Shown one piece after another: positions 37,182 through 54,726 of a stretch of DNA of 62,173 nt. Position 1 is the first letter of the stretch. Every line of letters starts with the position of its first letter. The notes under the pieces are model-generated. The model ran no database searches. It was given only the letters and a program-made list of their open reading frames with translations, and was not told the origin of the DNA. Made by a program: the position numbers and the translations under genes. This stretch comes from an uncultured Erysipelotrichaceae bacterium (GTDB taxonomy: Bacteria > Bacillota_I > Bacilli_A > RFN20 > CAG-826): NCBI GenBank assembly GCA_902800645.1, contig CADCFC010000004.1, forward strand, positions 1 to 62,173. Reading direction: 5' to 3'.

Positions 37182-37932
37182 ATTTTTAGATGTGTTACTT
37201 TATTCATTGCTATTTATTTTTGTTGTTTCTTTCCCGATTAATATGCTCGGGTTAGATCTAATTTGGCAATATGTTATTTCTATTGGATTAAAAGCTATAT
37301 TATTAACCTATTATATTTCTGTTTTATGGACTAGAAAGATTAACATTTTTAAGTTTGCAAATTACCGTGTTGCGCTTCTCTTCATTCCATTTTTATTAGC
37401 GTGTTTTTCTAATTTAATTGCTACTCAAATTATTGGAGTTTCTATTGTTACTTATTACGATCCTTCTTTACTTGCTGTAGTGATTGTTAGCACTGTTTTA
37501 ACTGCAATTAATGAAGAGTTTTTATTTAGATTCTTTATCCAAAGTTCTCTTGTTTACGCTTCAACAATCAAACGTGTTGTGGTAAGCGCTCTCATCTTCT
37601 CGCTTTTCCATTTATTAACTTTAGTGGAAGTAAGAAGCGTTGCTAGCTTAACTCAAGTATTAGTTCAAGCGGTTTACACCTTTGGATTAGGTTTAATTCT
37701 TGGACTTATGTATGAATATACGTATTCGTTACCTTTATGTATGTGGTTCCATTTCACATTTAATTTTATGAACTCAGTGCTTATTAGTAATATGCTTGTA
37801 GATGCTTCTAACACTAGTTTCACTTTAGCGTTTTATCTTACTGCGATTGTTATCGGTGTTGTATTAGCGATTTACGGCACACTTATTTACATTTTTGTTC
37901 TCTCTAAACACAACAAATATTTCAGAGAGTAA
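37171..37932 (+). CDS. CPBP (CAAX) family intramembrane glutamic endopeptidase
   Basis: The motifs EEFLFRFF, FSLFHL and FHFTFNF are present in a polytopic protein. Confidence 0.8.
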   Translation: MKFRFLDVLLYSLLFIFVVSFPINMLGLDLIWQYVISIGLKAILLTYYISVLWTRKINIFKFANYRVALLFIPFLLACFSNLIATQIIGVSIVTYYDPSLLAVVIVSTVLTAINEEFLFRFFIQSSLVYASTIKRVVVSALIFSLFHLLTLVEVRSVASLTQVLVQAVYTFGLGLILGLMYEYTYSLPLCMWFHFTFNFMNSVLISNMLVDASNTSFTLAFYLTAIVIGVVLAIYGTLIYIFVLSKHNKYFRE

Positions 37933-37944: not shown

Positions 37945-37974
37945 GTTGATATATCAACATTTCTAAAATATAAT
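37945..37974 (+). promoter_or_regulatory. Promoter TTGATA-17 nt-TATAAT with a perfect 14-bp palindrome (GTTGATATATCAAC) over the -35
   Basis: The palindrome is at 37945-37958, the -35 at 37946-37951 and the -10 at 37969-37974. ATG 37981 follows 6 nt later with no SD. Confidence 0.5.
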
Positions 37975-37980: not shown

Positions 37981-38529
37981 ATGGCCGAAGGTATTATTCT
38001 TGCTGGTGGAAAATCCACCAGGATGGGACAAAACAAAATGCTTTTGATGTACCAAAATCATCCATTAATTTGGTACACCATACAAAGCATGAAACCTTTT
38101 GTTAGTAAAATAATTATCGTTACCGGAAGATATGATAAAGAAATAAAAGAAACATTAAAAAATGAAGATGTTACTTTTGTTTTTAATGAGAACTATGAAA
38201 AAGGAATGTTTTCTAGTGTTTTGAAAGGTGTTAAAGAGACTAAAGAAGACTTTTTTATCATTCCTGGAGACTGCCCTTTTGTTAAAGAAGATACATATAG
38301 AAAGTTATTAAAAGGAAATGGAGATATAAGAGTGCCTTCATATCAAAATGAAGATGGCCACCCTATTTTTATTTCTAATAAATATAGAGGCGAATTACTC
38401 TCTATGCCATTAGATTTTAATCTAAAATTATTTCGTGATAGTAAAAATTATGAGATAATAAAAGTCGAAGACAAAAACATAGTTTTAAATGTTAATAAAA
38501 TGACAGATTTTGAAAATCTTTTACGTTAA
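37981..38529 (+). CDS. mocA: Molybdenum cofactor cytidylyltransferase-like (MocA/YgfJ family)
   Basis: The N-terminus is GIILAGGKSTRMG, and the PGDCPF motif is present. The protein is 182 aa and sits at the head of the Mo-hydroxylase operon. Confidence 0.75.
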   Translation: MAEGIILAGGKSTRMGQNKMLLMYQNHPLIWYTIQSMKPFVSKIIIVTGRYDKEIKETLKNEDVTFVFNENYEKGMFSSVLKGVKETKEDFFIIPGDCPFVKEDTYRKLLKGNGDIRVPSYQNEDGHPIFISNKYRGELLSMPLDFNLKLFRDSKNYEIIKVEDKNIVLNVNKMTDFENLLR

Positions 38530-38547
38530 CTGAGAAAGGAAGATAGT

Positions 38548-39342
38548 ATGAAAGTTAATGAATACTACCGTGCATCTTCTTTAGAAGATGCCTATCGTAA
38601 GTTACAAGAAGATCCTAAGAACGTAATTCTCGCAGGCGGTCTTTGGATTAAGAAAATTGGTCAAAGTGTTAACGCTTTGATTGATTTGTCTACCCTTGGC
38701 TTAAACAAAATTAGTGAGAACGAAAAAGAAGTAGTGGTGGGAAGCTTAGTCACTCAAAGAGAATTTGAAAACTCTAAAGTTATCAATTCTTTATATGGTG
38801 GAGCGATTGCTTTCGCTACTAGAGAAGTTATGGGAGTTAATTTCCGTAATATTGCCACTATCGGGGGATCAATCATGGGGAGATATCCATTCTCAGATGT
38901 GATATCTGGTTTACTGCCTTATGATGTAGAACTTGAATTCTATCCTAATCAAGTTATGTCTCTTGAAGATTATTTAGGTTATAAAGGAAAACTAAATTCT
39001 ATTTTAGTTGCTATCCATATTAAAAAAGAAAAAGGGAATGGTTTCTTTAAGAAAGTGAAGACCACCGCATTAGATTTTCCTATCATCAATTTTGGTGTCA
39101 GTAAAGTTAACGGAAAATATACAGTTGTAGTGGGAAATAGACCTGCAGGAAGTATTAGGGCAACTAAGGCTATGGAATATATCAATAATGTCGCTAATCC
39201 AAGCGAATTAGACTATAAGAAAGCCGCTGAAATTGCCGCTAGCGAATTAGCGTTTATGGATAATAAAGACGCAAGTGCGGAGTACCGTAAAGAATTAACA
39301 AAAGTCTATGTTAAACGTGGCTTAATGGAGGTAAACAAATAA
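38548..39342 (+). CDS. Molybdenum hydroxylase FAD-binding subunit (CoxM/XdhB-like), set 1
   Basis: 264-aa protein with FAD_binding_5-like motifs (ILAGGLW; ATIGGSI). It is adjacent to the 2Fe-2S and Mo subunit genes. Confidence 0.8.
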   Translation: MKVNEYYRASSLEDAYRKLQEDPKNVILAGGLWIKKIGQSVNALIDLSTLGLNKISENEKEVVVGSLVTQREFENSKVINSLYGGAIAFATREVMGVNFRNIATIGGSIMGRYPFSDVISGLLPYDVELEFYPNQVMSLEDYLGYKGKLNSILVAIHIKKEKGNGFFKKVKTTALDFPIINFGVSKVNGKYTVVVGNRPAGSIRATKAMEYINNVANPSELDYKKAAEIAASELAFMDNKDASAEYRKELTKVYVKRGLMEVNK

Positions 39343-39791
39343 TGTTAGTAAGTTTTTATCTCAATGATGTCAAAGTGACATATGAAGTTAAGCCTGGTGA
39401 ATATCTCGCGAATACTTTAAGAAGTCACGGAGTTAAATCTGTTCGTATAGGCTGTAATGAATCAACTTGTGGTTCATGTACACTTCTAGTTGAAGGCAAA
39501 CCAGTGATGAGTTGCTCTATTTTAACTGCTTCTATTGAAGGCAAGCACATTACTACAGTTGAAGGCATTCAAGAAGAAGCTGCTAAAATCAGTCGTCATT
39601 TTTCAAATGAAGGCGCTGATCAATGCGGATTCTGTAATGTCGGACTTGCCTTAGTGATTTACGCTCTTAAAAAAGAATATAAAAATCCTACTGATGAAGA
39701 GATTAAAAACTACATAGTAGGTAACCTTTGCCGTTGTTCGGGTCTTCAATCCCAAGTTAATGCGATTAAGGCCTATTTAAAGGAGGAATAA
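39342..39791 (+). CDS. Molybdenum hydroxylase (2Fe-2S) subunit, set 1
   Basis: The cysteine clusters are C.ESTCGSC...C and QCGFC...C.C. Confidence 0.9.
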   Translation: MLVSFYLNDVKVTYEVKPGEYLANTLRSHGVKSVRIGCNESTCGSCTLLVEGKPVMSCSILTASIEGKHITTVEGIQEEAAKISRHFSNEGADQCGFCNVGLALVIYALKKEYKNPTDEEIKNYIVGNLCRCSGLQSQVNAIKAYLKEE

Positions 39792-39794
39792 ACA

Positions 39795-42122
39795 ATGATT
39801 GTTGATAAGAAAAAAATGCGCGTTGTTAATAACAAAACTCCTTCTGTTGATGGAAAAGGTTTAATGCAAGGAAGAAGTTTTTACACTGATGACCTTGCCG
39901 AACAAAATAGTTTAGTTATTAAAATCTTACGTTCACCACACGCTTTTGCTCGTATTAAGAACATTGATGTTAGCGAAGCACAAAAGATTAATGGTGTTGC
40001 TCTTGTTTTAACATATAAAGATGTCCCACATGTATCATTTTCTAGAGCAGGACAAGGTTATCCAGAGCCATCTCCACATGATAAGTTCATCTTAGATGAA
40101 TATGTGCGTTATGTTGGTGATGAAGTTGCTATGGTCGCGGCAAATGATGAAGATACCGCTATTGAAGCACTTAAAGCCATTAAAGTTGATTATGAAGTAT
40201 TAGATCCTGTTTTGAATTTTGAAGAGGCATTTGAGAATAAATCAGTAATTCACCCAGAAGACGGAATTAATGAAATGTTCCCAATAGGTTTCGATCCAAA
40301 AAAGAACGTTGCTGCATCATACGAAATGCAAGTTGGCGATGTTGAAAAAGAGTTAAAGAAATCAGATGTTGTAGTTGATGAAACTTTCTACACACAAGCG
40401 CAAGCACATGCAATGTTAGAAACTCATAGCAGTAATGCTAGACTTGATGAACATAACCGTTTAGTTATTTATTCTTCCACTCAAACACCTTTCCATATGC
40501 GTCGTATCTTAGCGACAACTTTAGGAATGCCAGTTAGTCAAATTAGAGTTATTAAACCACGCGTTGGTGGTGGCTTTGGTGGTAAACAAGCATTCCACGG
40601 AGAATTCTTCTGCGCTCTTACTACTTTAAGAACTGGAAGACCATCAAGACTTGTATATACAAGAGAAGAGGTGTTTGGCTCTTCATACACACGTCACCCA
40701 ATGCGCATTGAGATGAAAATTGGTGCGATGAAAGATGGAAGAATCAACGCTATCGATTGTCGTGCGTTAAGTGATACAGGTGCGTATGGGGAACACTCCT
40801 TAACAGTCTTTATGATTGTCGGTAGTAAAGTGTTGCCTTTATATAACAAAGTTGATGCGGTTAGATTCGGTGGTAGAGTTGTTTACACTAATCACGTACC
40901 AGCAGGTGCGTATCGTGGATATGGTGCGATTCAAGGTAACTACGCTCTTGAAGCAACAATCGATATGCTCGCTGAAAAACTCGGTATGGATCCTAAAAAG
41001 GTTCGTGAGATTAACTCGATGAAAGAAAAAGAGACATCTCCAATCTTTGAAATTATGGGTGAAGGTACTAAAGGTACTGCGATGATTATGGAATCTTGTA
41101 AACTTCCATATTGTATTAAGCGTGGTGCTGAACTCATTGATTGGGAACATAATTTCCCATCTAAGAAAGTTAGCGACACTAAAGTTAGAGGATATGGAAT
41201 GGCTATCGCAATGCAAGGTAGTGGTATTCCATTTATGGATATGGGAAGCGCCACGATTAAGCTAAATGATGGCGGTTCTTATATGGTTACAGTAGGTGCA
41301 ACCGATATTGGGCAAGGCTCTGATACAATCATTTCTCAAATCGTTGCAGAAGAACTAGGCACTACCGTTGATAAGATTATTATTTATTCTTCGGATACTG
41401 ACTTAACTCCATTTGATTGTGGTGCTTATGCTTCTAGTACTACCTATATTTCTGGTAACGCTGCATGGAATGCTGCTCAAAAGATGAGAAAACGTTTAAT
41501 TAAAGAAGCAGCGACTTTCTTAGAAGAAAAAGAAGATAATATCGAATTTGATGGAACAACATTCACAAGTGGTGACAAATCAATCACCTTAAATGAAATG
41601 TCCATTAAGATGCTATATAACAAGAATCTTCAACAAGTAGCGGTAACTGAAAGTTATTATGGTCATGTTTCACCTCCTCCATTTATGGCAGCATACGCTG
41701 AAGTGGAAGTCGATTTAGAAACAGGTGAATATGATGTCCTCAACTATGTTACTGTCACTGATTGTGGTACAACAATTAACCCAATGCTCGCAAGAGGGCA
41801 AGTTGAAGGTGGAATTGTACAAGGTTTAGGTATGGCGTGTTTTGAAGCTGTTAAATACGATAAGAAAGGTAACTTACTTAGTAACAACTTCTTGAACTAT
41901 CATATTCCTACCAATAAAGAGATTCATAAATTAACAACTGAATTTGCTGATTCATACGAACCAACAGGTCCTTTTGGTGCGAAATCAGTTGGTGAAATTG
42001 GTATTGATACTCCTCCAGCAGTTATATGTAACGCGATATATAATGCGACTGGTGTTAGAATTCATTCTTTACCAATCACTCCTGAAAAGATTTTGATGGG
42101 GTTAAAAGAACTTAAGAAATAA
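39795..42122 (+). CDS. Molybdopterin-binding large subunit of a xanthine dehydrogenase family enzyme, set 1
   Basis: The motifs GGGFGGK, AYRGYG and GAKSVGEIG are present. The protein is 775 aa. Confidence 0.9.
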   Translation: MIVDKKKMRVVNNKTPSVDGKGLMQGRSFYTDDLAEQNSLVIKILRSPHAFARIKNIDVSEAQKINGVALVLTYKDVPHVSFSRAGQGYPEPSPHDKFILDEYVRYVGDEVAMVAANDEDTAIEALKAIKVDYEVLDPVLNFEEAFENKSVIHPEDGINEMFPIGFDPKKNVAASYEMQVGDVEKELKKSDVVVDETFYTQAQAHAMLETHSSNARLDEHNRLVIYSSTQTPFHMRRILATTLGMPVSQIRVIKPRVGGGFGGKQAFHGEFFCALTTLRTGRPSRLVYTREEVFGSSYTRHPMRIEMKIGAMKDGRINAIDCRALSDTGAYGEHSLTVFMIVGSKVLPLYNKVDAVRFGGRVVYTNHVPAGAYRGYGAIQGNYALEATIDMLAEKLGMDPKKVREINSMKEKETSPIFEIMGEGTKGTAMIMESCKLPYCIKRGAELIDWEHNFPSKKVSDTKVRGYGMAIAMQGSGIPFMDMGSATIKLNDGGSYMVTVGATDIGQGSDTIISQIVAEELGTTVDKIIIYSSDTDLTPFDCGAYASSTTYISGNAAWNAAQKMRKRLIKEAATFLEEKEDNIEFDGTTFTSGDKSITLNEMSIKMLYNKNLQQVAVTESYYGHVSPPPFMAAYAEVEVDLETGEYDVLNYVTVTDCGTTINPMLARGQVEGGIVQGLGMACFEAVKYDKKGNLLSNNFLNYHIPTNKEIHKLTTEFADSYEPTGPFGAKSVGEIGIDTPPAVICNAIYNATGVRIHSLPITPEKILMGLKELKK

Positions 42123-42123
42123 T

Positions 42124-43431
42124 ATGTTTGATCTATTAATTAAAGACGGTTTTGTGTGGCTCGGTGACCACTTTGCTAAGGCAAATATCGGTGTTGAAGG
42201 AGAAAGAATTACTTATATTGGTAAAGATATTTTTCCTAGTAAAGATATTTACGATGCGAGTGGAAGAAAAGTTCTACCAGGATTAATTGATCCACATGTC
42301 CACTTTGATTTATTCTGTGGAACAATTCCTAGTAGAGATGACTTTTATTACGGCTCTAAAAGCGCTGCTTATGGAGGAGTTACAACCGTAATTGATTTTT
42401 TAGATCCATCAAGAAATGCAAAAGAATTAAAACAAACTTTCTATGAAAGATTAGAGAAGGCTAAAAGATGTAATGTTGATTATCATTTTCATGCATGTAT
42501 TAAAGAACCAGATGGTGATTTAGAAGAATATGTCTTAACGATGAAAAAACTAGGTATTAACACCATCAAGTTATTCACTACATATTCAGAAACACATCGT
42601 AGAACATATGATAAAGACATTAAGAAACTCTTAAGGCTTTCTAAGAAATATGACTTCTTGGTGTGCGCTCATATCGAAAATGATGAGATGATTAATCATA
42701 ACCCAGAATTGACTTATCAAGACTTATGGAAAGCAAGAAGTAGTGACGCTGAATTAACCGAAGCACTTAAGCTATGTAAATACGCTAAACAAACAGGCGG
42801 AAATTTATATATGGTCCACTGTTCTAGCGGCCGTACTTTAAGAAGAATTATTAATCAATTCCCAGACGAATTAAATGACAATATTTTCATTGAAAGCTGC
42901 CCTCAGTATTTCTACTTCAATAAAGATGTATTGAAGGGTAATCAAGGTTATCTATTTACCTTTGCTCCTCCTTTAAGAAAAGAAAGTGAAAGAAAACTAC
43001 TTGTGAAAAACTTCTCTAAGCTTGCAACTATTGGAACTGATCACTGTGCTTTTACTATTCAAGACAAAAAAGAACACACTCTTCTAAATGGCATGCCTCT
43101 AGGCGTTGGAGGTATTGAAAACTCATTCAATGTTATGTATGAAGCCTTTGGTGATGAGGTGATTAATAAGATGAGTAAAAATGTTGCAAAAATAGAGAGA
43201 TTTGCCGAGAAAGGACAAATAAAAGTCGGAAATTTCGCAGATTTTGCAATCATTTCTGGAGAGAATCAAATCATTGGAAAGCCTCATGGTAATGTCGATT
43301 ACACAATCTATGAAGGCATTACAGTTCATAATAAAGTTGAAAGCACAATTGTTAGAGGAAAGTTTGTTTTAAAAAGAGGCGAATTCTTTGAAAACGAAGG
43401 CCAATTAATTAATTGTGACAAAGGGGCATAA
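42124..43431 (+). CDS. Cyclic amidohydrolase (dihydropyrimidinase / D-hydantoinase family, HyuA-like)
   Basis: The metal-binding motif DPHVHF is present, with the carbamylated-Lys region INTIKLF. The protein is 435 aa and overall hydantoinase-like. Confidence 0.8.
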   Translation: MFDLLIKDGFVWLGDHFAKANIGVEGERITYIGKDIFPSKDIYDASGRKVLPGLIDPHVHFDLFCGTIPSRDDFYYGSKSAAYGGVTTVIDFLDPSRNAKELKQTFYERLEKAKRCNVDYHFHACIKEPDGDLEEYVLTMKKLGINTIKLFTTYSETHRRTYDKDIKKLLRLSKKYDFLVCAHIENDEMINHNPELTYQDLWKARSSDAELTEALKLCKYAKQTGGNLYMVHCSSGRTLRRIINQFPDELNDNIFIESCPQYFYFNKDVLKGNQGYLFTFAPPLRKESERKLLVKNFSKLATIGTDHCAFTIQDKKEHTLLNGMPLGVGGIENSFNVMYEAFGDEVINKMSKNVAKIERFAEKGQIKVGNFADFAIISGENQIIGKPHGNVDYTIYEGITVHNKVESTIVRGKFVLKRGEFFENEGQLINCDKGA

Positions 43432-43432
43432 G

Positions 43433-44734
43433 ATGAAAGCAATTATTAATGTTAGAATCTACGACTATCAAAATTATATTGAAAATGGCTATGTTATTTT
43501 TGATAAAAATATAATCAAAGTAGGTCAAATGAAAGACTTCAAAAATGAAGGCTATTCTTTAATTGATGGAAAGGGCCAATTACTCCTTCCAAATTTCGTT
43601 TGTGCCCATTCTCATATCTATTCAATTTTTGCTAGAGGTTTAGTACTTCCATTTAACCCTAAAAACTTCCAAGAAATACTTGACCAAATGTGGTGGAAAA
43701 TCGATTCTCAAATTGATAATCCAATCACTTATTATTCTGGTATCGCTGCGGGTAGCGAATTCTTACTTAATGGTGTCACAACAATAATTGATCATCACGC
43801 TTCAGGCAGTGAAATCATTGGTTCATTGTCTTCTCTTAAAAAAGCTTTGGTGAATAAACTTCATCTTAGAGCGATTCTTTGCTTTGAAACTAGTGACCGT
43901 TATCCTCTTAAGGACTGTATTAAAGAAAATATTTCGTTTGCTAAAAAATATCATAATGACCACATTAGTGGACTATTTGGAATGCACGCTTCAATGTCTT
44001 TAAGTGATGAATCATATAAAGCAATTTCAAAGAGAATTAATGGACTTCCTATTCATATTCATGTTGCAGAAAGCGAAATGGATGAAGAAGAATCATTTAA
44101 TAAATACGGAACTGATATTGTGACTAGATTAAATAAATATCACCTCATTAATAAAAATTCTTTAATTGTTCATGGCGTTCACATTAAAGATAATGAACTT
44201 CAAATTGTTAAAGATAGTGGTGCGTATATGGTTGTTAACACTACAAGCAACTGCAATAATGCGGTTGGTGTTCCAGATATTAAAAAATATCTTTCATATA
44301 ATATTCCTGTCATGGTGGGTAATGATGGTTTATCTTCTTCGATGGCAACTGAATATTTAAATGCTTATTACTTAACTCATTTAAAAAATTTAAATCCAAC
44401 CGCTATGAATTTAGGGGACATTGTTGATATAATCAATAATGCATATAGATATGTCGGTGATAGATTGGGAATCAAAATAGGAAAGATTCAAGAGTCTTTT
44501 GTTGCGGACTTTATGCTTCTTCCATATGCCCCATTTACCGAGATGAATTCTTCTAATGCTTTCGGACATGTTTTCTTTGGGTTATATCCAAACTTCAAAC
44601 CGAATGATGTCTATGTTTCTGGAATGAGACTCGTAAAAAACGGTGAAATCGTTAGTAAGAGAAATAAAGAAGAATTATTAGAAGCGAGAAAATATAGTCA
44701 AATACTTTGGAACAAAGTAAAGGAGATAAAATAA
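43433..44734 (+). CDS. ssnA: SsnA-like aminohydrolase (amidohydrolase superfamily)
   Basis: I trimmed the start to ATG 43433. The motifs CAHSHIYS, IHVAES and the overall pattern resemble E. coli SsnA and chlorohydrolase-type deaminases. Confidence 0.7.
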   Translation: MKAIINVRIYDYQNYIENGYVIFDKNIIKVGQMKDFKNEGYSLIDGKGQLLLPNFVCAHSHIYSIFARGLVLPFNPKNFQEILDQMWWKIDSQIDNPITYYSGIAAGSEFLLNGVTTIIDHHASGSEIIGSLSSLKKALVNKLHLRAILCFETSDRYPLKDCIKENISFAKKYHNDHISGLFGMHASMSLSDESYKAISKRINGLPIHIHVAESEMDEEESFNKYGTDIVTRLNKYHLINKNSLIVHGVHIKDNELQIVKDSGAYMVVNTTSNCNNAVGVPDIKKYLSYNIPVMVGNDGLSSSMATEYLNAYYLTHLKNLNPTAMNLGDIVDIINNAYRYVGDRLGIKIGKIQESFVADFMLLPYAPFTEMNSSNAFGHVFFGLYPNFKPNDVYVSGMRLVKNGEIVSKRNKEELLEARKYSQILWNKVKEIK

Positions 44735-45819: not shown

Positions 45820-45821
45820 AT

Positions 45822-47915
45822 ATGTTACCAAACTATAAAACGTCAGTTAAAAAAGTAGATAATGAAGACAAGATGTCAGGTCTTGCTATTTTTACTGGTG
45901 ACATCCAAATGGATGGGGCGTTATTTGCCTTACCAGTAAGAAGTACGATTTCCTATGGAAAGATAAAAGAGATTCATGTTCCAACTCTTCCAGAAGGATA
46001 TTATTTCATTTCTGCAAAAGATATCGTCAAAGAAAACGTCTGTAATATTATCGTTAGTGATTGGCCTGTTTTCGCTGATAAAGAAACTCACTATAAAGGT
46101 GAGACAATGGGTTTAATCATTGGACCTGATAAAGATGTTTGTATTGATTTAGTTAATAAGACATACGCTGATTATGAAGAATATGAACCAGTGTATGAAA
46201 TGAAGAACTCCTACGTTCATAAAGAATTTAAAAAAGGCGACCCTTCTTTATTTAATGGCGCCGCTAAAGTTTATTCAGAAGAATTTGAAACTGGTTATCA
46301 AGAACAAATCTATTTAGAGACACAAGCTATGCTTATGTATTTAGATGGGGACAAAATCACTGTTAAAGCATCAATGCAGTGTCCTTTCTATATTCATAAA
46401 GCAATTTGTAGAACTTTAGGATGTAAAGAAGACAAAGTCAGAGTAATTCAACCTGCAGTAGGTGGAGCTTTCGGTGGAAAAGAACATTATCCATCTTTGA
46501 TGGCAGCTCAACTAGCAACTGCAATTGTGAAGATTAAAAAACCACTCTTCATGTGCTTTGATCGTCATGAAGATATCACCTTCACCACTAAAAGACATCC
46601 AAGTAAAACTAATATCAGTGCATATTTAGATAAGAACAACGAAATTATTGGATTAAAGATTCATGTTGGAATTGATGGAGGAGCGTATATCGGCTGTTCC
46701 ATGGTCGTTCTTTCTAGAGCGTTAATCGCATGCACTAATACATATACATTCGCTAACCTTGAAGTTAGTGGAGATGCATATTGCACAAATAAGGTTCCTA
46801 GCGCTGCTTATCGTGGTTTTGGGTCTCCTCAATCAATATTTGCAATTGAGATGTTCATGAAGCATTTAGCGGGTTTCTTACGTGTGGATGCTCTTGAATT
46901 TAGAAATAAATACCTCGTTAAAACAGGTGATATAACTTGTACAAGCGGAGTGTTTAGAGATCCAATCATTTTAAAGCCACTCATGGATAAAGCGATGGAA
47001 ATGAGTGACTATAAACGCAAAAGAGAAGAATATTCTAAACCTGGTTCACTTAGAGGAATTGGTATTTCTACTTTCCTACATGGTTGTGGCTTTACGGGAA
47101 GTGGAGAAAGCACAATTATTAACGCTCAACTAAAGATTAAGAAAGATAAAAACGGTATAGTTACTTTCTATACTTCTCAAGTTGATTTTGGTCAAGGCAA
47201 TAGAACCACCTTAAAAAGAATTGTAGTTGATACTTTAGGTATTCCTGAAGATCACGTTATATATGACGCTCCTGATACTGATAAAACATTATCTACTGGT
47301 CCTACTGCTGCTAGTAGAACAATTATTATTGTTGGAGGCTTATGTGCCAAAGCAGCACAACATTTAAAAGAAATATGGGTTGATGGTGAAGAACAAGAAA
47401 TTGTTGAGCCATATGTCGGCCCAAGTTATATCAAATGGGATGAAGACACAATGCAAGGGGATGCTTATCCTGGCTATGCATGGGGTGTCAACATAGTTGA
47501 AGTTGAAGTTGATCCAGTTACTTATGAATTATCTATTTTAGGTACATGGTCAACATATGATGTTGGTCACGCGATTGATGAAAGAATATTAGTTGGTCAA
47601 GCAGATGGGGGCTTAGCGCAAGCCTTAGGTTGGGCCTATTTAGAAAACGAAGTAGCAGAAAATGGTGTATTTAAACAAACTAAAATGTCTGATTACGTCA
47701 TTCCTACTTCTTTAGATATGCCACATATGGAGACTGCATTTATTGATAATCCATTCCCATATGGCGCTTTCGGGGCTAAAGGTGCTGGTGAATTAACATT
47801 TGTTGGTGGTGCTCCTGCTTTAGCAGATGCATTAGAACAAGCAATTGGAAAGAAAGTTAATAAGATTCCAGCAACCCCAGAATTTATTATGGAGCTCATG
47901 AACGATGAAGATTAA
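45822..47915 (+). CDS. Molybdopterin-binding large subunit of a xanthine dehydrogenase family enzyme, set 2
   Basis: The motifs GGAFGGKE, AYRGFG and GAKGAGEL are present. The protein is 697 aa. Confidence 0.85.
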   Translation: MLPNYKTSVKKVDNEDKMSGLAIFTGDIQMDGALFALPVRSTISYGKIKEIHVPTLPEGYYFISAKDIVKENVCNIIVSDWPVFADKETHYKGETMGLIIGPDKDVCIDLVNKTYADYEEYEPVYEMKNSYVHKEFKKGDPSLFNGAAKVYSEEFETGYQEQIYLETQAMLMYLDGDKITVKASMQCPFYIHKAICRTLGCKEDKVRVIQPAVGGAFGGKEHYPSLMAAQLATAIVKIKKPLFMCFDRHEDITFTTKRHPSKTNISAYLDKNNEIIGLKIHVGIDGGAYIGCSMVVLSRALIACTNTYTFANLEVSGDAYCTNKVPSAAYRGFGSPQSIFAIEMFMKHLAGFLRVDALEFRNKYLVKTGDITCTSGVFRDPIILKPLMDKAMEMSDYKRKREEYSKPGSLRGIGISTFLHGCGFTGSGESTIINAQLKIKKDKNGIVTFYTSQVDFGQGNRTTLKRIVVDTLGIPEDHVIYDAPDTDKTLSTGPTAASRTIIIVGGLCAKAAQHLKEIWVDGEEQEIVEPYVGPSYIKWDEDTMQGDAYPGYAWGVNIVEVEVDPVTYELSILGTWSTYDVGHAIDERILVGQADGGLAQALGWAYLENEVAENGVFKQTKMSDYVIPTSLDMPHMETAFIDNPFPYGAFGAKGAGELTFVGGAPALADALEQAIGKKVNKIPATPEFIMELMNDED

Positions 47916-48372
47916 TTTTAAATTAAATGGTAGTAACGTAACTGTTGATGTAGTTCCGTCAAAACGCCTTTTAGATGTTTTAAGAGAAGATTTACATCTA
48001 ACCGGAACAAAAGAAGGATGCGGAGAAGGAGAATGTGGCGCTTGTACTGTTTTAGTGGATAATCGCCCAATTAATTCTTGTATTGCTCCAATTGCAAATA
48101 TTGCAAATAAAGAAGTAATTACTATTGAAGGATTTAGAGAAACTAAAGCGTATAGAGTTATCGCTGATGCTTTTGCAGATATGGGTGGAAGTCAATGTGG
48201 CTTCTGTACTCCTGGTATGATTTTAGCAACTTATGCAGTACTTAGAGATAACCCACATCCAACTGAAGAAGAAGCGAGAATTGCTCTTAGTGGGAACCTT
48301 TGTAGATGTACTGGATATCAAGCGATAGTTAACGCTGTACTTAAAGCTAGCGAGAAAGGAATTAAATTATGA
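47905..48372 (+). CDS. Molybdenum hydroxylase (2Fe-2S) subunit, set 2
   Basis: The cysteine clusters are CGEGECGAC...C and QCGFCTPG...CRCTGY. Confidence 0.9.
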   Translation: MKINFKLNGSNVTVDVVPSKRLLDVLREDLHLTGTKEGCGEGECGACTVLVDNRPINSCIAPIANIANKEVITIEGFRETKAYRVIADAFADMGGSQCGFCTPGMILATYAVLRDNPHPTEEEARIALSGNLCRCTGYQAIVNAVLKASEKGIKL

Positions 48373-49220
48373 TAAATCATTACGTTCCTACTAGTTTAAA
48401 TGACGCTCTTAAGTATTTATCTACTCATGATTGTTACATTATGAGTGGCGGCACTGATCTCATGGTGCAAAAACATGTTAGTTCGCTTGTTTTGCCAAGA
48501 TTTGATAAGGATGTTTTGTATGTTGGAGAACTAAAAGAACTCCAATATATTAAAGAAGATAAAGATGGGAACATTTTAATTGGTGCAGAAACTAAATATG
48601 CTGATTTATTGCTCTCTCCTATTGTTCCTGAAATCTATAAAACAGTTATTAAAGAAATAGCCTCTCCAAATATTAGAAATATGGCCACAATGGTAGGCAA
48701 TATTGGTAACGCTTCTCCCGCTGGAGATAGCTTAGTTCCACTCATCTTAAATGACGCTGAAGTTGTCTTAAAAAGTGTAAATGGAGAAAGAGTCTTAAAA
48801 GTATCTGAATATATTTTAGGCGTAAAGAAAACTGCGCGTAAAAATGATGAAATTATTGTGGAAATCAGACTTTTGAAGCAAAATTTACGCTATTTGTATA
48901 GAAAAGTTGGTGCGCGTAAAGCTGAATCAATTACTAAGGTTTCCTGTCTAGTTGGCTATCAAATAAAAGAAAAGAAGTTAATCGATTTTAGAGTGGCGTT
49001 TGGCTCTGTTGGTGTGACAATTATTAGAAATTTAGAAATTGAAAATAAATATAAAAATATAGAAGTTAAAGACCTTGATGTTGATCGCGTTATTAGTGAT
49101 TATTATCAACTTGTAACTCCGATTGATGATCAAAGGAGTAATAAAGAATATCGTCATAAGGTGGCGATGAATTTATTGAGAAAATTCTTACTTGAATTGA
49201 AAGGAGGAATTGATGAGTAA
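48369..49220 (+). CDS. Molybdenum hydroxylase FAD-binding subunit, set 2
   Basis: The motifs SGGTDL and ATMVGNIGNASPAGD are present. The protein is 283 aa. Confidence 0.8.
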   Translation: MINHYVPTSLNDALKYLSTHDCYIMSGGTDLMVQKHVSSLVLPRFDKDVLYVGELKELQYIKEDKDGNILIGAETKYADLLLSPIVPEIYKTVIKEIASPNIRNMATMVGNIGNASPAGDSLVPLILNDAEVVLKSVNGERVLKVSEYILGVKKTARKNDEIIVEIRLLKQNLRYLYRKVGARKAESITKVSCLVGYQIKEKKLIDFRVAFGSVGVTIIRNLEIENKYKNIEVKDLDVDRVISDYYQLVTPIDDQRSNKEYRHKVAMNLLRKFLLELKGGIDE

Positions 49221-50460
49221 TTTCATTCGTGGATATCGATGTACTGTATGTGGGCAATTCTTTGAAACAAAAGAGGCAATGATGACTTGCCCTCACTGTG
49301 GAGAAAAAGGAATTCTTGATGTTGAATTCGATTATGAAGCACTCAAGAAAGTTCTCACAAAAGAGTATTTCCAAAATAATCGAAACTACTCGATGTGGAG
49401 ATACGCTCCACTCATGGGAATTGAAGAAAATCACATCGATGAAATGCTTCGTATCGGATGGACTCCACTTGTTAAGTCATTTAACCTATCAAAGGAATTA
49501 GGACTTAAGGAACTCTATATCAAAGATGATGGTTTAAATCCTAGTGGAAGTAGTAAAGATAGAGCGAGCGGAGTTGCCGTTCTAAAAGCTATTGAAAGCG
49601 GCGCTAAAGTTATCGCGTGTTCTTCTACTGGTAACGCTGCGAGTAGCTGTGCATGTCACGCAGCACATATGGGTCTTCCTGCTGTTATCTTTGTTCCTAA
49701 AAGAGCGCCGATTGGAAAGTTGACTCAAATCTCTTTATATGGAGCAACATTAGTTGTTGTTGATGGAGACTATAAAGCTGCCTTCCGTTTATCAAAAGAA
49801 GCTATTAATAAATATGGTTGGTATAACCGTAATGCTGCAATTAATCCATTTATGGTTGAAGGAAAGAAAACTGTTTCCTTGGAAATTGCAGAACAACTTA
49901 ATTTTAAGCCCACTGATTGGGTGGTCGTCTCAGTTGGAGATGGATGTACCGTCGGTGGAGTTTATAAAGGATTCTATGAATTACATAAGTTAGGGCTTAT
50001 CGATAAAGTTCCTAAGATTCTTGGAGTTCAATCTGAAGGATGTGAACCATTCGTGAAAGCGAGTAGAGAAAACGCTCCGCTTGAAGAATGTGAAGAAAAC
50101 ACCTTAGCCGATAGTATCGCTGTTGGTATTCCTCGTAATCCTCTTAAAGCTCTTAGAGCGGTTGAAAACTCTAAAGGCAGTTGGATTAGTGTTCCTGATA
50201 CTGAAATCATTAATGCGATGGCTTTATTAGGAAAAAAAGAAGGCATATTTGGAGAACCTGCCGCTGTTACCTCTCTAGCGGGACTTATTAAAGCCCTTAA
50301 TGAAGGAATTATTAGTAAAGATGAAAGTGTAACAATCATCATTACTGGCAACGGTCTAAAAGATCCAAACAATGCCCAAAAGGCGATTAGTAAACCAGAA
50401 CTAATGGAGCCAAATATTAATAAGTTAGACATTTACTTAAAAGAAAAAGGAGTAATTTAA
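49213..50460 (+). CDS. Threonine synthase-like PLP (PALP fold) enzyme with an N-terminal zinc ribbon
   Basis: The start is ATG 49213 with AAGGAGG upstream. The zinc ribbon reads CTVCG...CPHCG. The PLP-Lys motif is NPSGSSKDR, and the glycine loop is SVGDGC. Confidence 0.7.
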   Translation: MSNFIRGYRCTVCGQFFETKEAMMTCPHCGEKGILDVEFDYEALKKVLTKEYFQNNRNYSMWRYAPLMGIEENHIDEMLRIGWTPLVKSFNLSKELGLKELYIKDDGLNPSGSSKDRASGVAVLKAIESGAKVIACSSTGNAASSCACHAAHMGLPAVIFVPKRAPIGKLTQISLYGATLVVVDGDYKAAFRLSKEAINKYGWYNRNAAINPFMVEGKKTVSLEIAEQLNFKPTDWVVVSVGDGCTVGGVYKGFYELHKLGLIDKVPKILGVQSEGCEPFVKASRENAPLEECEENTLADSIAVGIPRNPLKALRAVENSKGSWISVPDTEIINAMALLGKKEGIFGEPAAVTSLAGLIKALNEGIISKDESVTIIITGNGLKDPNNAQKAISKPELMEPNINKLDIYLKEKGVI

Positions 50461-50462
50461 AT

Positions 50463-51830
50463 ATGTCAAAAATCCCATTTGGTCCAACATATGACGAAAT
50501 GTTGAACCCAAACCATCAAGATCCAGAAGTTAGAAAGGCTGCTTTGAAAGCAAAGAAAGAGAACGAACTCGATCCAATCAACCTCTTTAACATCACATGG
50601 AAAAACGAGAATAATGAAGTTAACAAGATTGTTCTTCCTAAGGAAATCACTGGAGTAGATGCGAACATCGTCGTTCTTCTTGGTAAATATTTCCCAAGTG
50701 GAAGCCATAAAGTTGGCCCAGCTTATTCAACATTAATCGAAGGATGTGTTGATAAAGAAATCATCCCAGGAAAACACACTATTTTAGGACCAAGTACAGG
50801 TAACTTTGGTATCGGAGTTAGTTATATTACTAACTTAATGAAATATGATGCGATTGTTATCATGCCAGATAATATGTCCAAAGAGAGATATGAAAGAATC
50901 CAAAAATATGGCGCTAAACTCGATTTAACACCAGGCAGTGAAAGCGATGTCATTCTTACTCTTGAAAGAACATACGAGCTTAAGAAAGATCCAAAGAATA
51001 GAACTTTAGCCCAATTTGAATTATTACCAAACTATCGTTTCCATCGTCACGTGACTGGAAATAGCTGTATTGAAGCAGTTAAAGGAATTGGTAATGGTAG
51101 AGTCGCTGCCTTCTGCTCCGCTCCAGGTAGTGCTGGAACTTTAGCGGCAGGCGACCAAATTAAAGTTGCATTCCCAGAATGTAAGATTGTCGCTTTAGAA
51201 CCACATGAATGTTCAACCTTAACTAATGGTGGTCGTGGACAACATAGAATTGAGGGTATCGGAGATAAGATGTGTACCTTAATTCATAACGTCTTAACTA
51301 CTGACTTCATCACTCAAATCGTTGATGATGACTGCGTTAGAGGTCTTGAAGTAATTCATGAAGGCACTGATATTTTAGTGGCACATGGAGTGGATAAGAA
51401 AGTCGCAGAAAGCATGACTAACTTATTCGGTGTTTCTGGTATTTGTAATATCTTAGGCGCTATTAAGATGGCAAAATACCTCAAACTCGGACCAGATGAT
51501 AACGTTGTTACTATCGCTACTGATAGCTTTGATAGATATGATTCTGTTATCGCTAACTTAAAAGAAAGAGAACTCGAAGTTACTCCTAATGTTTTAGAGA
51601 GATGGTTTAATGATGTTTTCTTAGGCGCTGACACTAAAGGTATCCTAGATACTCGTGGAAAAGAAGCTAAAGAAAAACTCTTCTTACAAAAAGAGAAAGA
51701 CTGGTTACCATTCGGTTATTCCAAGAAATATCTCGATAGCATGAAAGAGATGTCCTTCTGGGAAAATGAATATAACAAGATTCATGAATATGATGAAAAG
51801 ATAAAAGCGCTTAGAGGAAAGGAAATTTAA
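50463..51830 (+). CDS. PALP-fold PLP-dependent enzyme, subfamily unclear
   Basis: The candidate PLP-Lys motif is [12 protein letters not shown], followed by GPSTGNFG. The protein is 455 aa with an extended C-terminus. Confidence 0.55.
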
Positions 51831-51834
51831 GATA

Positions 51835-53049
51835 ATGAAAGTACCTTTTGAGCAAGTATTGGCAAAGGCTGAGTCCTATAAAAAGGACATGGTCAAATTT
51901 CTTCGCGATATGGTAGCGATTCCTTCTGAATCATGTCAAGAAAGAGAAGTAGTCCTACGTATTAAAGAAGAAATGGAAAAAGTCGGCTTTGATAAAGTCG
52001 TCATCGACCAAATGGGTAACATCTTAGGATATGTTGGCCATGGAAGTCATTTAATTGGTATGGACGCCCATATCGATACAGTCGGAATTGGAGAAATCAA
52101 AAACTGGACATTTGATCCATATAAAGGTTTCGAAGATGATGTCTATATCGGTGGAAGAGGCACAAGTGACCAAGAAGGTGGTATGGCATCGATGGTCTAC
52201 GCTGCAAAAATCATTAAAGATTTACATTTAGAAGATGATTACACTTTAGTGATTACCGGAACAGTTCAAGAAGAAGATTGTGATGGACTTTGTTGGCAAT
52301 ACATCATTGAAGAAGATAAGTTAAGACCAGAATTTGTTGTTTCAACTGAACCAACAAGCTGCCGTATCTATCGCGGACATAGAGGAAGAATGGAAATTAA
52401 AGTTTCTGTTAGAGGTATCTCTTGTCACGGTTCCGCTCCCGAAAGAGGAGATAACGCAATCTATAAGATGGCACCAATCATTGAGCAAGTTAAAGAACTT
52501 AATGAAAAAGGCTTAGCGTATGATCCATTTTTAGGAAAAGGAACAGTCACTATAAGTGAAATCTTCCATAAATCCCCATCTAGATGCGCAGTTGCAGATG
52601 GATGCTGGATCTCTTTAGATAGAAGATTAACAGTGGGTGAAAACGATAAGACCTCAATCGCGGAAATTGAAGCTCTTCCAGGAGTTAAAGCCGCTAACGC
52701 TAAAGTTGAGATGTATCGCTATGAAAGAGCGAGCTACACTGGTTTACTTTATCCAACCGAATGCTATTTCCCAACTTGGGTAATTCCAGAAGAAAGTATC
52801 TTTGTTCAATCGATGAAACAAGGCTATGAAGGTTTATTCAAGAAAGAACCTGTAATTGATAAATGGACATTCTCCACTAATGGAGTGTCGATTATGGGAA
52901 GATATGGTATTCCTTGTATCGGATTTGGACCTGGCGACGAAAAAGAAGCACACGCACCAAATGAAAAGACGAGAAAACAAGACCTCGTCATCTGTGCGGC
53001 TTTATATGCAGTTATGCCACTTCTCTATTTAGAGAATTTAAAGAAATAA
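51835..53049 (+). CDS. ygeY: YgeY family M20 peptidase/amidohydrolase
   Basis: The N-terminus [34 protein letters not shown] closely matches E. coli YgeY as I recall it. M20 metal motifs are present. Confidence 0.85.
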
Positions 53050-53071
53050 TTTAGGAGATAAATAATTAACT

Positions 53072-54082
53072 ATGGAAAAAATTGCACCAAGATTTGCAGG
53101 TAGACACCTCATTACTCTTGAAGATTTCACAAAAGAAGAAATCGATTACATGCTCAAAGTATCTCGTGATTTAAAAGATGCTTTCTACAGAAACGAACCA
53201 ACTGATTGGTTAACAAACAAAACTGGATTCTTAATGTTCTTTGAACAATCAACAAGAACCAGAAACTCATTTGAAAGTGGTATGGCTCAACTTGGAGGAC
53301 ATGCGACCTTCTTAGACACCTCAATGATGCAAATCGCTCACGGAGAAAGCGCGAAAGACACCGCGGTTATCCTTTCAAGTTTCGGCCATATGATCGCTTG
53401 TAGATATTGTAACTGGGGACTCGGAAATAAATATATTCGTGAAATGGCGAAATGGTCCACGGTCCCAATCATCAACTTACAATGTGACTTATATCACCCA
53501 ATGCAAGCTCTTGCAGACTTAATGACCATCGAAGATGAATTCGGACACACTGAACATCTTAAGGTTTCTGTTATTTGGGCGATGGCGACTACTCATAAAA
53601 AACCAATTTCAGTACCAGTTTCTCAAGTCTTACTCTTCCCAAGATATGGAATCGATGTCACTCTTGCTTATCCTGAAGGATATGATTTACCAGATTGGGT
53701 TATTGAAAAAGCGAGAAAGAACGCTGCTGAACACGGTGGTAGCTTAACTATCACTCATGATATGGACGCTGCTTATAAAGACGCAGATGTTGTCTTCCCA
53801 AAGAACTGGGGTAGCTGGGTTACTAACCAATCTACAACTGTTGTTGATGACGCTTTACTTGCTCTTAAAGCATGGAAATGTACTCCAGACAAGATGGCGT
53901 TAGCAAAACCAACATGTAGATATATGCACGCTCTTCCTGCTGATAGAGTTAACGAAGTCGTTGATGAAGTTATCGACGGACCACAATCAGTTGTTTATCA
54001 AGAAGCGGAAAATAGAATCCACACTGCAAAAGCAGTTATGGCGTTATTCGTTCACGATAAACTTCCTAGCGATAGACGCTAA
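53072..54082 (+). CDS. ygeW: YgeW-like carbamoyltransferase
   Basis: Carbamoyl-phosphate binding motifs STRTR, HPMQ and HALP are present. YgeW-like segments include IAHGES, NLQCDLYHP, GIDVTLAYPEGYDLP and DADVVFPKNW. The ornithine-site DxxSMG motif is absent. Confidence 0.8.
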   Translation: MEKIAPRFAGRHLITLEDFTKEEIDYMLKVSRDLKDAFYRNEPTDWLTNKTGFLMFFEQSTRTRNSFESGMAQLGGHATFLDTSMMQIAHGESAKDTAVILSSFGHMIACRYCNWGLGNKYIREMAKWSTVPIINLQCDLYHPMQALADLMTIEDEFGHTEHLKVSVIWAMATTHKKPISVPVSQVLLFPRYGIDVTLAYPEGYDLPDWVIEKARKNAAEHGGSLTITHDMDAAYKDADVVFPKNWGSWVTNQSTTVVDDALLALKAWKCTPDKMALAKPTCRYMHALPADRVNEVVDEVIDGPQSVVYQEAENRIHTAKAVMALFVHDKLPSDRR

Positions 54083-54102: not shown

Positions 54103-54129
54103 GGGCAGAATTAATTTCTGTCCTTTTTT
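54103..54129 (+). terminator. Intrinsic terminator ending the Mo-hydroxylase operon
   Basis: GGGCAGAA/TTCTGTCC stem, a 5-nt loop and a T6 run. Confidence 0.65.
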
Positions 54130-54722: not shown

Positions 54723-54726
54723 ATTT

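Follow-up and report, generated by a model that had tools for sequence, protein, structure and literature searches.

A 14-gene operon for predicted anaerobic purine degradation in an uncultured rumen member of the Bacilli, with two pyridoxal phosphate enzymes in place of YgeX

Contig CADCFC010000004.1 (assembly GCA_902800645.1), whose entire 62,173 nt are called the window here, comes from an uncultured low-GC lineage of the Bacilli from cattle rumen, and the GC content of the window is 32–40%. Of the sequence words sampled from the window, 95% occur in one bovine gut metagenome run (X1). Positions 37981 to 54082 hold 14 open reading frames (ORFs) on the + strand, g01 to g14, which form a real, conserved operon; in the ORF list, neighboring genes overlap by up to 28 nt or stand up to 22 nt apart. 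The enzymes of this operon resemble those of anaerobic urate and purine breakdown, except that two pyridoxal phosphate (PLP) enzymes are found in place of YgeX. A carbamate kinase encoded upstream on the opposite strand is part of the same purine system, although it lies outside the operon. The features are as follows, with flavin adenine dinucleotide abbreviated to FAD and molybdenum to Mo.

35388..36302, − strand: carbamate kinase, YqeA/ArcC type (TIGR00746 arcC, 392 bits, cut-off 358; 53% identity to E. coli YqeA)
37946..37974, + strand: promoter-like site TTGATA-17-TATAAT (11/12 matches; top-scoring site in 35.3–55.2 kb)
37981..38529, + strand: g01, MocA/YgfJ-like nucleotidyltransferase (PF12804, 123 bits; 30% identity to E. 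coli MocA)
38548..39342, + strand: g02, FAD-binding subunit of hydroxylase 1 (PF00941 and PF03450; 25% identity to XdhB, 24% to YgfM)
39342..39791, + strand: g03, 2x[2Fe-2S] subunit of hydroxylase 1 (XdhC-type models, 110–135 bits)
39795..42122, + strand: g04 (Mo1), Mo-binding subunit of hydroxylase 1, XdhD type (closest E. coli protein XdhD)
42124..43431, + strand: g05, cyclic amidohydrolase of the hydantoinase/dihydropyrimidinase type, HyuA-like (28% identity to E. coli HyuA)
43415..44734, + strand: g06, divergent SsnA-family amidohydrolase (28.5% identity to E. coli SsnA)
44707..45819, + strand: g07, DHO_dh flavoprotein of the UacX/PydA/PreA type (PF01180 and a C-terminal 2x[4Fe-4S] part)
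45822..47915, + strand: g08 (Mo2), Mo-binding subunit of hydroxylase 2 (24% identity to both E. coli XdhA and XdhD)
47905..48372, + strand: g09, 2x[2Fe-2S] subunit of hydroxylase 2 (pucE/XdhC models, 167–170 bits; 46% identity to E. coli XdhC)
48369..49220, + strand: g10, FAD-binding subunit of hydroxylase 2 (XdhB model NF043083, 159 bits; 27% identity to E. coli XdhB)
49210..50460, + strand: g11, threonine-synthase-like PLP enzyme (PALP, 268 bits; N-terminal CxxC...CxxC zinc ribbon, rubredoxin-like)
50463..51830, + strand: g12, long CysK-fold PLP enzyme of 455 aa (conserved N- and C-terminal extensions)
51835..53049, + strand: g13, YgeY, M20 ureido-hydrolase (TIGR03526, 678 bits, cut-off 321; 70% identity to E. 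coli YgeY)
53072..54082, + strand: g14, short YgeW-like carbamoyltransferase (OTC/ATC fold; 36% identity to E. coli YgeW)
54103..54129, + strand: intrinsic terminator (8-bp stem with 4 GC pairs, 5-nt loop, then six T)

The -10 hexamer of the promoter-like site ends 7 nt before the ATG of g01 at 37981, and no Shine-Dalgarno sequence was found between the two. Given this short distance and the missing Shine-Dalgarno sequence, the mRNA of the 16-kb operon may be leaderless at g01, which would then be translated from a leaderless message. At the other end, the terminator hairpin (54103–54123) lies 21 nt past the last stop codon and has a folding energy of -13.7 kcal/mol (z = -5.2); none of 200 shuffled sequences folds as well. 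An unbroken 14-gene operon closed by a strong terminator, as reported in the first-pass annotation of this DNA, is borne out by the co-directional ORFs, by gaps of at most 22 nt, by the hairpin and by the order kept in relatives. An Rfam scan of the whole window found only two tRNAs and a signal recognition particle (SRP) RNA near 19.8–20.1 kb and no family near the operon, on which basis a riboswitch or other RNA regulator of the operon was rejected.

Proteins were scored against NCBIfam models at their curated cut-offs and against Pfam, and the E. coli K-12 locus was compared by identity and by tblastn. NCBIfam and Pfam agree, gene by gene, with the domain content and order first described, and the assignment of the operon to the ygeW/ygeY/ssnA/hyuA type, tied to anaerobic urate and purine degradation, is supported. 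The family scoring that had been proposed as a check came out in part as expected: of the E. coli-type models, only that of YgeY is passed within the operon (the upstream carbamate kinase passes as well), while the SsnA-, hydantoinase-, YgeW- and MocA-like proteins have these families as best matches, yet stay under the curated cut-offs. For g01, TIGR03310 (MocA) gives 123 bits against a cut-off of 186; this protein is probably the molybdenum cofactor cytidylyltransferase for both hydroxylases. The hydantoinase-type g05 reaches 227 bits with TIGR02033 (D-hydantoinase; cut-off 393), and its metal ligands are intact in sequence (HxH motif, Lys149, His183, His232, Asp306). SsnA-like g06, whose family is the marker of such clusters, scores 341 bits with PRK07203 SsnA, below the cut-off of 444 and also below a second one of 455, and the next family follows at only 111 bits. 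Searches by tblastn with E. coli YqeB, YqeC, YgfK, YgeX, XanQ and UacT found none of them in the 62-kb window; SelD was not a query. YqeB, YqeC and SelD together mark the selenium-dependent molybdenum hydroxylase system of the Haft and Self neighborhood.

The operon encodes two molybdenum hydroxylases. In hydroxylase 1, Mo1 is closer to E. coli XdhD (37% identity, 499 bits) than to XdhA (32.5%, 385 bits), and it scores 652 bits with the XdhA model (cut-off 780) and 578 with the XdhD-type model TIGR03313 (cut-off 1102). Taken together, g03 and g04 align colinearly with E. coli XdhD, in which the two parts are fused (35% over 961 aa by tblastn), and the order g02-g03-g04 is that of ygfM-xdhD. 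Mo1 also has an insertion that is present in XdhD and absent from XdhA and Mo2, and its Glu423 aligns with XdhD Glu606, a proposed urate-orienting residue (Li et al., 2025, PMC12507026). In hydroxylase 2, Mo2 scores 272–302 bits with the curated xanthine dehydrogenase (XDH) models, whose cut-offs are 780–916. Substrate-site residues were located by aligning Mo2 to bovine XDH (chain 3sr6_C) and transferring the positions to a four-way alignment. The substrate and catalytic residues of the bovine enzyme, which from the xanthine oxidoreductase literature we take to be E802, R880, F914, F1009, T1010 and E1261, correspond to the following.

E802: kept in Mo2 (E221); Q in Mo1 and in E. coli XdhD
R880: kept in Mo2 (R299); I in Mo1, N in E. 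coli XdhD
F914: kept in Mo2 (F333); Y in Mo1 and in E. coli XdhD
F1009/T1010: kept in Mo2 (F424/T425); I plus a deletion in Mo1 and in E. coli XdhD
E1261: kept in Mo2 (E657), in Mo1 (E734) and in E. coli XdhD (E917)

Mo2 also retains Q767 and R912 of bovine XDH, and all of the 18 orthologues compared share its GGAFGGKE and GAKGxGE motifs unchanged. Within each Mo orthologue group GGxFGGK[QE] and GxK[GS]x[GS]E are invariant, as is the Mo1-specific insertion PIFxIMGEG. Hydroxylase 2 (g08–g10) is accordingly named here as a predicted xanthine/hypoxanthine dehydrogenase with a canonical XDH-type site, and hydroxylase 1 (g02–g04) as a predicted urate 6-dehydroxylase/2,8-dioxopurine dehydrogenase of the XdhD type. 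E. coli XdhA (L014, 4346–6604; L numbers denote loci of the comparison set) has Q at E802, A at R880, Y at F914 and T/W at F1009/T1010, so that its active site is less like that of canonical XDH than the site of Mo2. Two split three-subunit hydroxylases had been listed as a difference from E. coli; they are present, but they are no departure, since E. coli has split XdhABC and XdhD-YgfM. The arrangement is that of E. coli and C. sporogenes with XdhD un-fused.

The flavoprotein g07 has no FAD/NAD domain, and its gene overlaps SsnA-like g06. It scores 143 bits with the PreA model NF006183 (cut-off 335) and has the PF01180 domain beside SsnA by which UacX is defined (PMC12507026); it is likened to UacX by architecture and position, not by sequence. 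We regard it as a predicted 2,8-dioxopurine reductase of the UacX type, and the g06/g07 gene overlap fits the reported coupling of SsnA and reductase. A PreA-like protein standing in for YgfK is thus present as first described, although it is not novel, being a published variant of the pathway. The carbamoyltransferase g14 scores 255 bits with the ornithine carbamoyltransferase (OTC) model (cut-off 281) and 182–193 with the YgeW models (cut-offs 453–500). It carries the carbamoyl-phosphate motifs STRTR and HPMQ, lacks the DxxxSMG ornithine loop, reads FPKNW at the place of YgeW YPKSW, has HALP in place of HCLP, and is 60 aa shorter than E. coli YgeW. Short carbamoyltransferases of 312–336 aa, most with PK[NS]W and H[AP]LP, also occur beside members of the g12 family in metagenomes. 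These motifs place g14 in a YgeW-like subfamily that is neither OTC nor orthodox YgeW, so that the earlier YgeW label holds for the kind of enzyme and fails for YgeW proper.

The departure from the E. coli set that does hold is at the end of the pathway, where a threonine-synthase-like enzyme and a second PALP enzyme are found instead of YgeX. No YgeX-like ORF was found in the window by tblastn; with PRK08206 (cut-off 276) g11 scores 62 bits and g12 26 bits. Alignments of YgeX to g11 and g12 are partial, at 24–28% identity, and the proteins are not orthologues; YgeX and g12 are both fold type II PLP enzymes with the same place in the pathway, and g12 is found in clusters without YgeX. The ThrC-like/CysK-like pair in the absence of YgeX is a genuine feature that recurs widely in metagenomes and has apparently not been described before: the literature searched on the pathway contained no mention of threonine-synthase- or cysteine-synthase-like members replacing YgeX.

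The first of the pair, g11, passes the broad thrC model TIGR00260 (216 bits against 167) and is about 40% identical to solved threonine synthases. However, the NPxR[IL]EG motif of four out of four solved threonine synthases is aligned with NPFMVEG in g11, with Met for Arg, and of the 43 g11 orthologues examined, the 41 with a recognizable motif all have M, L or T at this position and never Arg. In the threonine synthase of Thermus this Arg is presumably a ligand of the substrate phosphate. Judged by this motif, g11 is probably not a threonine synthase and is probably a partner of g12. It may act on the other enantiomer, as a lyase or racemase, or it may serve as a dehydratase for serine or cysteine made by g12; both are given as options only.

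The second, g12, scores 134 bits with CysK (cut-off 351) and 85 with CysM (394–413). It is much longer than the usual CysK or CysM of about 300 aa, with extra segments of about 60 aa at the N-terminus and 90 aa at the C-terminus, some 150 in total, that are largely conserved in its own family. The PLP lysine, Lys83, is invariant in the family, and conservation also covers PSTGNFG, GSAGT and, in the C-terminal part, Trp414 and Trp433. Among 1.84 billion cluster representatives, about 111 fall in this small, separate family at E<1e-30. An AlphaFold (AF2) model of g12 (pLDDT 80, pTM 0.86) has beta-cyanoalanine synthase and CysK as best matches, and a fold search with this model returned only the expected CysK/beta-cyanoalanine synthase neighbors and no YgeX-like signal. 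With O-acetylserine sulfhydrylase and beta-cyanoalanine synthase, g12 shares the type II PLP fold, the catalytic Lys, the STGNF Asn-loop and the GSAGT Gly-loop; it differs from the O-acetylserine sulfhydrylase family in its extra termini, in failing the CysK/CysM models and in its context, which is purine-catabolic and not that of sulfur assimilation.

A metagenome scan with the g12 family alignment gave 80 loci at 41–93% identity from peat, sediment, soil, digesters and guts, and neighbors were counted where a locus had 8 kb of flank or more, which left 44 loci. SsnA was found near g12 in 26 of these, a ThrC-like (g11) gene in 23, YgeY in 20, a Mo subunit in 20, a carbamoyltransferase in 17, UacX in 13, a hydantoinase in 9, YgfK in 4 and YgeX in 1; UacX or YgfK was present in 17. 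In metagenomic loci that hold both g11 and g12, the two are adjacent in 27 out of 33. Clusters of the YgfK type (L039, L040, L045 and L048) combine FAD, Fe-S and Mo subunits, YgeY, YgfK, carbamoyltransferase and SsnA with g12 and have no g11 or YgeX; carbamate kinase was seen in two of them (L045, L048). In a metagenome-assembled genome (MAG) of the Anaerolineales, a g12 homologue has as its neighbor a bona fide SsnA, which at 558 bits exceeds the cut-off of 444. All 11 hydantoinase-bearing loci of the g12 family have a ThrC-like gene, and the YgfK-type clusters have neither within 10 kb; hydantoinase and ThrC-like gene may therefore form a functional module, the counts including related loci without adjustment. 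YqeB-like genes were seen beside g12-type clusters in L041 and L060. The contexts of distant g12 homologues, which were considered as a clue to the substrate, had no common theme (phosphotransferase system, P-type ATPase, Cys/Met PLP enzyme, methylase, ArgJ). Taken by itself, the proposal that g12 is the functional replacement of YgeX has an even chance of being correct.

Among relatives, the operon is retained as a unit. When species-representative genomes were searched with the SsnA-like protein, 12 loci turned up in Bacilli-type MAGs, all with the same gene order where the contig allows, and about 10 with all or nearly all 14 genes. The nearest genomes are rumen MAGs labelled Bacilli/Erysipelotrichaceae, in which the SsnA-like protein is 53–72% identical. 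Across about 10 species-level MAGs, amino acid identity per gene ranges from 41 to 98%, lowest for the second FAD subunit g10 (41–58%) and highest for the carbamoyltransferase g14 in the closer MAGs. At conserved residues, third-codon-position identity is 0.5–0.7 in all genes, with synonymous sites near saturation; such a low value indicates purifying selection on the operon, so that the spread of identities among the genes reflects constraint. The recurring gene order is not due to chance. In rumen MAGs L002–L008 and L012 g14 is 95–98% identical (74–76% in L009 and L011), and its synonymous sites are about as diverged as elsewhere, which points to unusually strong purifying selection on this gene. 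In the MAGs with g14 at 95–98%, SerC is about 80% and the SsnA-like protein about 61% identical. Recent horizontal transfer as the cause of the high conservation of g12–g14 was rejected, as synonymous positions are as diverged as those of the other genes. Rumen metatranscriptome contigs cover close relatives of the operon. The higher RNA depth over g12–g14 is not interpretable as differential expression, because contigs of related species were matched at 85% likeness and conserved genes recruit more relatives.

The operon also varies in content among relatives. Non-rumen operons (L017, L022, L024 and L036) have one more gene, of about 570 aa, placed after the second FAD subunit and before g11; the two copies scored, in L017 (7037–8761) and L024 (6488–8735, the coordinates in both cases being those of the extra genes), are adenine deaminases (TIGR01178, 612–655 bits, cut-off 472). 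A gene of 178 aa accompanies it in L022, L024 and L036, and the one copy scored, from L024, is PuuR-like, with helix-turn-helix and cupin parts. In the same three loci, carbamate kinase directly follows the carbamoyltransferase. Adenine deaminase and a PuuR-like gene within the operons of relatives are independent support for purine catabolism. L003 has the whole operon but for the hydantoinase gene, the Mo subunit being followed directly by the SsnA-like gene (9987–10001). L009 (7459–8686), L010 and L011 carry two additional genes after the XdhD-type Mo subunit and before the hydantoinase, encoding a polytopic membrane protein of 229 aa and a P-loop NTPase of 191 aa. These were considered as YqeC/YqeB and rejected, as they do not resemble the E. 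coli proteins; neither has an NCBIfam match, and Pfam gave only a weak match to NTPase_1 (PF03266) for the 191-aa protein. They may be a transporter or cofactor-insertion pair.

The pathway with which the operon is compared, the 2,8-dioxopurine or reductive urate route, was reconstituted biochemically in 2025 (PMC12507026; bioRxiv 10.1101/2025.04.24.650524, later Nat Microbiol), so that the reported link of such clusters to urate degradation, which the first-pass annotation had cited, stands and is no longer mere association. In this route, XdhD (DOPDH) converts urate to 2,8-dioxopurine, which is then reduced by YgfK or by the C. difficile PydA-like UacX; SsnA and HyuA open the two rings to give 2,3-diureidopropionate; YgeW (with carbamate kinase and ATP formation) or UacY takes the first ureido group; YgeY takes the second to give 2,3-diaminopropionate; and YgeX forms pyruvate and ammonia (PMC12507026; 10.1101/2025.04.24.650524). 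Conversion of 2,8-dioxopurine by C. difficile UacX and SsnA was shown (PMC12507026). A separate XDH feeds in hypoxanthine and xanthine, and both hydroxylases of C. sporogenes need SelD (10.1101/2025.04.24.650524).

The E. coli K-12 set (xdhABC/ygeWXY-hyuA-yqeA/mocA/ygfK-ssnA-ygfM-xdhD) supplies the same enzyme families for every step except two, E. coli having YgfK and YgeX where a UacX-type reductase and g11 with g12 are found here. Its genes lie in several units and XdhD is fused, whereas the rumen genome has one operon and an XdhD split into Fe-S and Mo proteins; no yqeB, yqeC, permease or sigma-54 regulator is found near the latter. Identity to E. coli is only 24–37% for most operon proteins, compared with the higher values of YgeY and carbamate kinase given above. 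The uricolytic cluster of C. difficile is similar, by description, in having next to SsnA a PF01180 reductase that binds flavin mononucleotide (FMN) and lacks a FAD domain, in place of YgfK. It has the UacY hydrolase and an XdhD without FAD subunit, and keeps YgeX (PMC12507026), whereas the window lacks YgeX, has a carbamoyltransferase together with a kinase, and provides each hydroxylase with a FAD subunit. C. sporogenes (DOPDH, XDH and DOPOR; Liu et al., 2025) likewise has two Mo hydroxylases with separate roles and gains ATP through carbamate kinase, but it uses YgfK (DOPOR) and YgeX, and its hydroxylases are SelD-dependent and do not use NAD(P)H, in contrast to the presence of FAD subunits here. 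A cultured Izemoplasma, Xianfuyuplasma coldseepsis zrk13, has a cluster (G4Z02_01105–01195) that is of the same type by annotation words only; the annotation list matches the operon of the window and the relatives L009–L011 and L017–L036 (PMC8397711). This cluster is co-induced, and was read as nucleotide and amino-acid metabolism with no link to urate (Zheng et al., 2021, PMC8397711).

It is likely that the operon encodes a complete anaerobic route from purines to pyruvate of the 2,8-dioxopurine type, the substrates being most likely purines and uric acid. Each step of the proposed mechanism is drawn from homology to characterised enzymes. Hydroxylase 2 would oxidize hypoxanthine and xanthine to urate, and hydroxylase 1 would form 2,8-dioxopurine from urate by removal of its 6-oxo group, with g01 providing the cytosine dinucleotide form of the molybdenum cofactor. 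The purine core would be reduced by g07, a UacX-type FMN/2x[4Fe-4S] reductase, after which SsnA-like g06, translationally coupled to g07, would open the first ring and the hydantoinase g05 the second, giving 2,3-diureidopropionate. Phosphorolysis of one ureido group by g14 would yield carbamoyl phosphate, from which the carbamate kinase (35388–36302) would form ATP, and YgeY (g13) would hydrolyze the other ureido group to leave 2,3-diaminopropionate. Finally g12, with the help of g11 in many lineages, would form aminoacrylate from this C3 amino acid and thus pyruvate and ammonia. As the oxidations of hypoxanthine release four electrons and the steps of hydroxylase 1 and g07 consume four, the breakdown of hypoxanthine would be redox-neutral, and the FAD subunits on both hydroxylases may exchange electrons with the pyridine nucleotide pool.

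Support for this complete route comes from the structure of the operon, homology to E. coli, the hydroxylase residues, the 2025 biochemistry, the conserved gene order, the co-occurrence of g12 with SsnA and YgeY, rumen transcripts of close relatives and, by description, the co-induced cluster of X. coldseepsis. Other observations weigh against it. The organism is uncultured and is known here from genes alone. The SsnA-, HyuA-, YgeW- and MocA-like proteins and both Mo subunits score under their cut-offs at 24–37% identity to E. coli, which makes the identity of the substrates an extrapolation. By tblastn and annotation, the window is without YgeX, YqeB, YqeC or a purine permease, and it encodes neither a ferredoxin nor a PreT-like partner for g07. 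The functions proposed for g11 and g12 derive from gene context and fold. CysK-type enzymes usually hold aminoacrylate for a nucleophile and do not release pyruvate. Ten of the 44 g12-family loci are without any searched purine-cluster gene or ThrC-like gene, and in the five of these that were checked the neighbors are unrelated.

The behavior of CysK-type enzymes is the starting point of a different, rather unlikely ending, in which g12 and g11 would form aminoacrylate in the manner of CysK and then add a nucleophile (sulfide or water) to give cysteine or serine. Aminoacrylate would, with comparably modest probability, come from 2,3-diaminopropionate or directly from beta-ureidoalanine (albizziin) with elimination of urea, and the ThrC-like partner might, on an equally tentative view, process the product of g12 or the other enantiomer. 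If this were true, purine carbon and nitrogen would go into amino acids or a sulfide-catalysed cycle and not straight to pyruvate, and outside animal guts, for instance in peat, sediments and digesters, such an ending would be the usual variant. A more ordinary account, which we consider very improbable, makes g11 and g12 biosynthetic threonine and cysteine synthases embedded by chance, with YgeX encoded elsewhere in the genome. The thrC model score of g11 and its identity to solved threonine synthases fit such housekeeping roles, as do the CysK fold and PLP motifs of g12 and the presence of serA and serC a few kb upstream; but g11 and all motif-bearing orthologues are without the Arg of NPxR[IL]EG, g12 is far from the CysK cut-off and belongs to a small separate family with conserved extra termini, and the pair is adjacent and SsnA-linked over 41–93% identity and many habitats, with YgeX almost never there.

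Broader doubts concern the substrate and the route as a whole. The same enzyme families could act through other intermediates on a related but different N-heterocycle, such as another oxopurine, a pteridine or lumazine, or a substituted pyrimidine. Identities of just 28–36% between g05, g06 and g14 and the E. coli enzymes, with scores well under the equivalog cut-offs, would suit this, and so would two unusual PLP enzymes instead of YgeX and the failure to find a urate/xanthine permease in the window. It is nevertheless unlikely: a YgeY 70% identical to that of E. coli speaks for a shared ureido-aminopropionate substrate, the insertion and Glu specific to XdhD are present in Mo1, Mo2 has the full set of xanthine-binding residues, adenine deaminase is encoded inside the operons of relatives, and the g12 family is also found with bona fide SsnA (above its cut-off in the Anaerolineales) and in YgfK-type clusters. 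The classical clostridial (Rabinowitz) purine fermentation, which leads from xanthine via ureido- and amino-imidazole carboxylates to formiminoglycine, would likewise account for xanthine dehydrogenase-type enzymes and amidohydrolases. It is scarcely credible here, since no operon protein fits a decarboxylase, a formiminotransferase or an enzyme of the glycine pathway by NCBIfam or Pfam, and the set of SsnA, YgeY, carbamoyltransferase and carbamate kinase is the signature of the pyruvate-forming route; the classical-route genes are a distinct set (PMC12990295), against which the operon was not scored directly.

Between the carbamate kinase and g01, the window and its closest relative L002 (2692–4186) alone have an lgt-like gene and a gene for a CPBP-family protease (36405–37932 in the window); most related MAGs have the kinase immediately before the operon and divergent from it, with DUF1015-serC-serA further upstream. 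In the window, DUF1015, SerC and a SerA-like dehydrogenase are encoded at 31848–35320, just upstream of the kinase; serC/serA are also upstream in L003, L004, L006, L009, L011 and L012, and DUF1015 was detected in L003, L004, L006 and L012. Their proximity could be plain synteny or a phosphoserine link to the PLP enzymes of the operon. Past the terminator, at 54213–55083 and with a promoter-like site of their own, are a nitroreductase-family gene of 169 aa and a gene of 118 aa similar to the MrpORP C-terminal domain; L013 and L066 also have weak nitroreductase homologues near g12 and SsnA. Elsewhere, the stretch 19763–20103 holds tRNA-Met and tRNA-Ala on the − strand and the small SRP RNA (20019–20103, + strand); an ORF of 189 aa at 20003–20572 is probably spurious at its 5′ end because it overlaps the SRP RNA. 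Very large ORFs stand at 1624–13291, 13768–17331 (− strand), 55128–58157 and 59463–62003. ORFs of 802, 588, 1257 and 1009 aa have no Pfam/NCBIfam match (Pfam scan only for the 1257-aa ORF), and the other large ORFs of the window have only surface-type modules (Listeria-Bacteroides repeat, GLUG, Big_2, GDSL, SASA esterase); the large ORFs probably encode cell-surface or glycan-handling proteins.

The pathway itself is now known, and a UacX-type reductase and two hydroxylases have already been described, so that the YgeX-less ending is the only apparently undescribed feature of the operon. The first-pass annotation had held that the chemistry may differ in part from the described route; such a difference may exist, but at the end of the pathway only, in its last one or more steps. 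Anaerobic urate removal now has the 2,8-dioxopurine pathway as its reference, and surveys probe with the gene set of E. coli or C. sporogenes. In the published neighborhood analysis, any PF00291 protein was counted as YgeX (PMC12507026). Because many clusters end in g11/g12, gene-based surveys of this kind may mislabel or miss the last step. Clusters ending in two uncharacterised PLP enzymes are found in rumen Bacilli, probably in Izemoplasma, and in many environmental lineages. The activity of g11/g12 could reveal a new diaminopropionate- or ureidoalanine-converting enzyme, which would complete the pathway in its carriers, and it would show whether purine carbon ends as pyruvate or as amino acid. 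For rumen nitrogen, the operon points to an uncultured lineage equipped to recycle nucleic-acid purines, with a gain of ATP via carbamate kinase.

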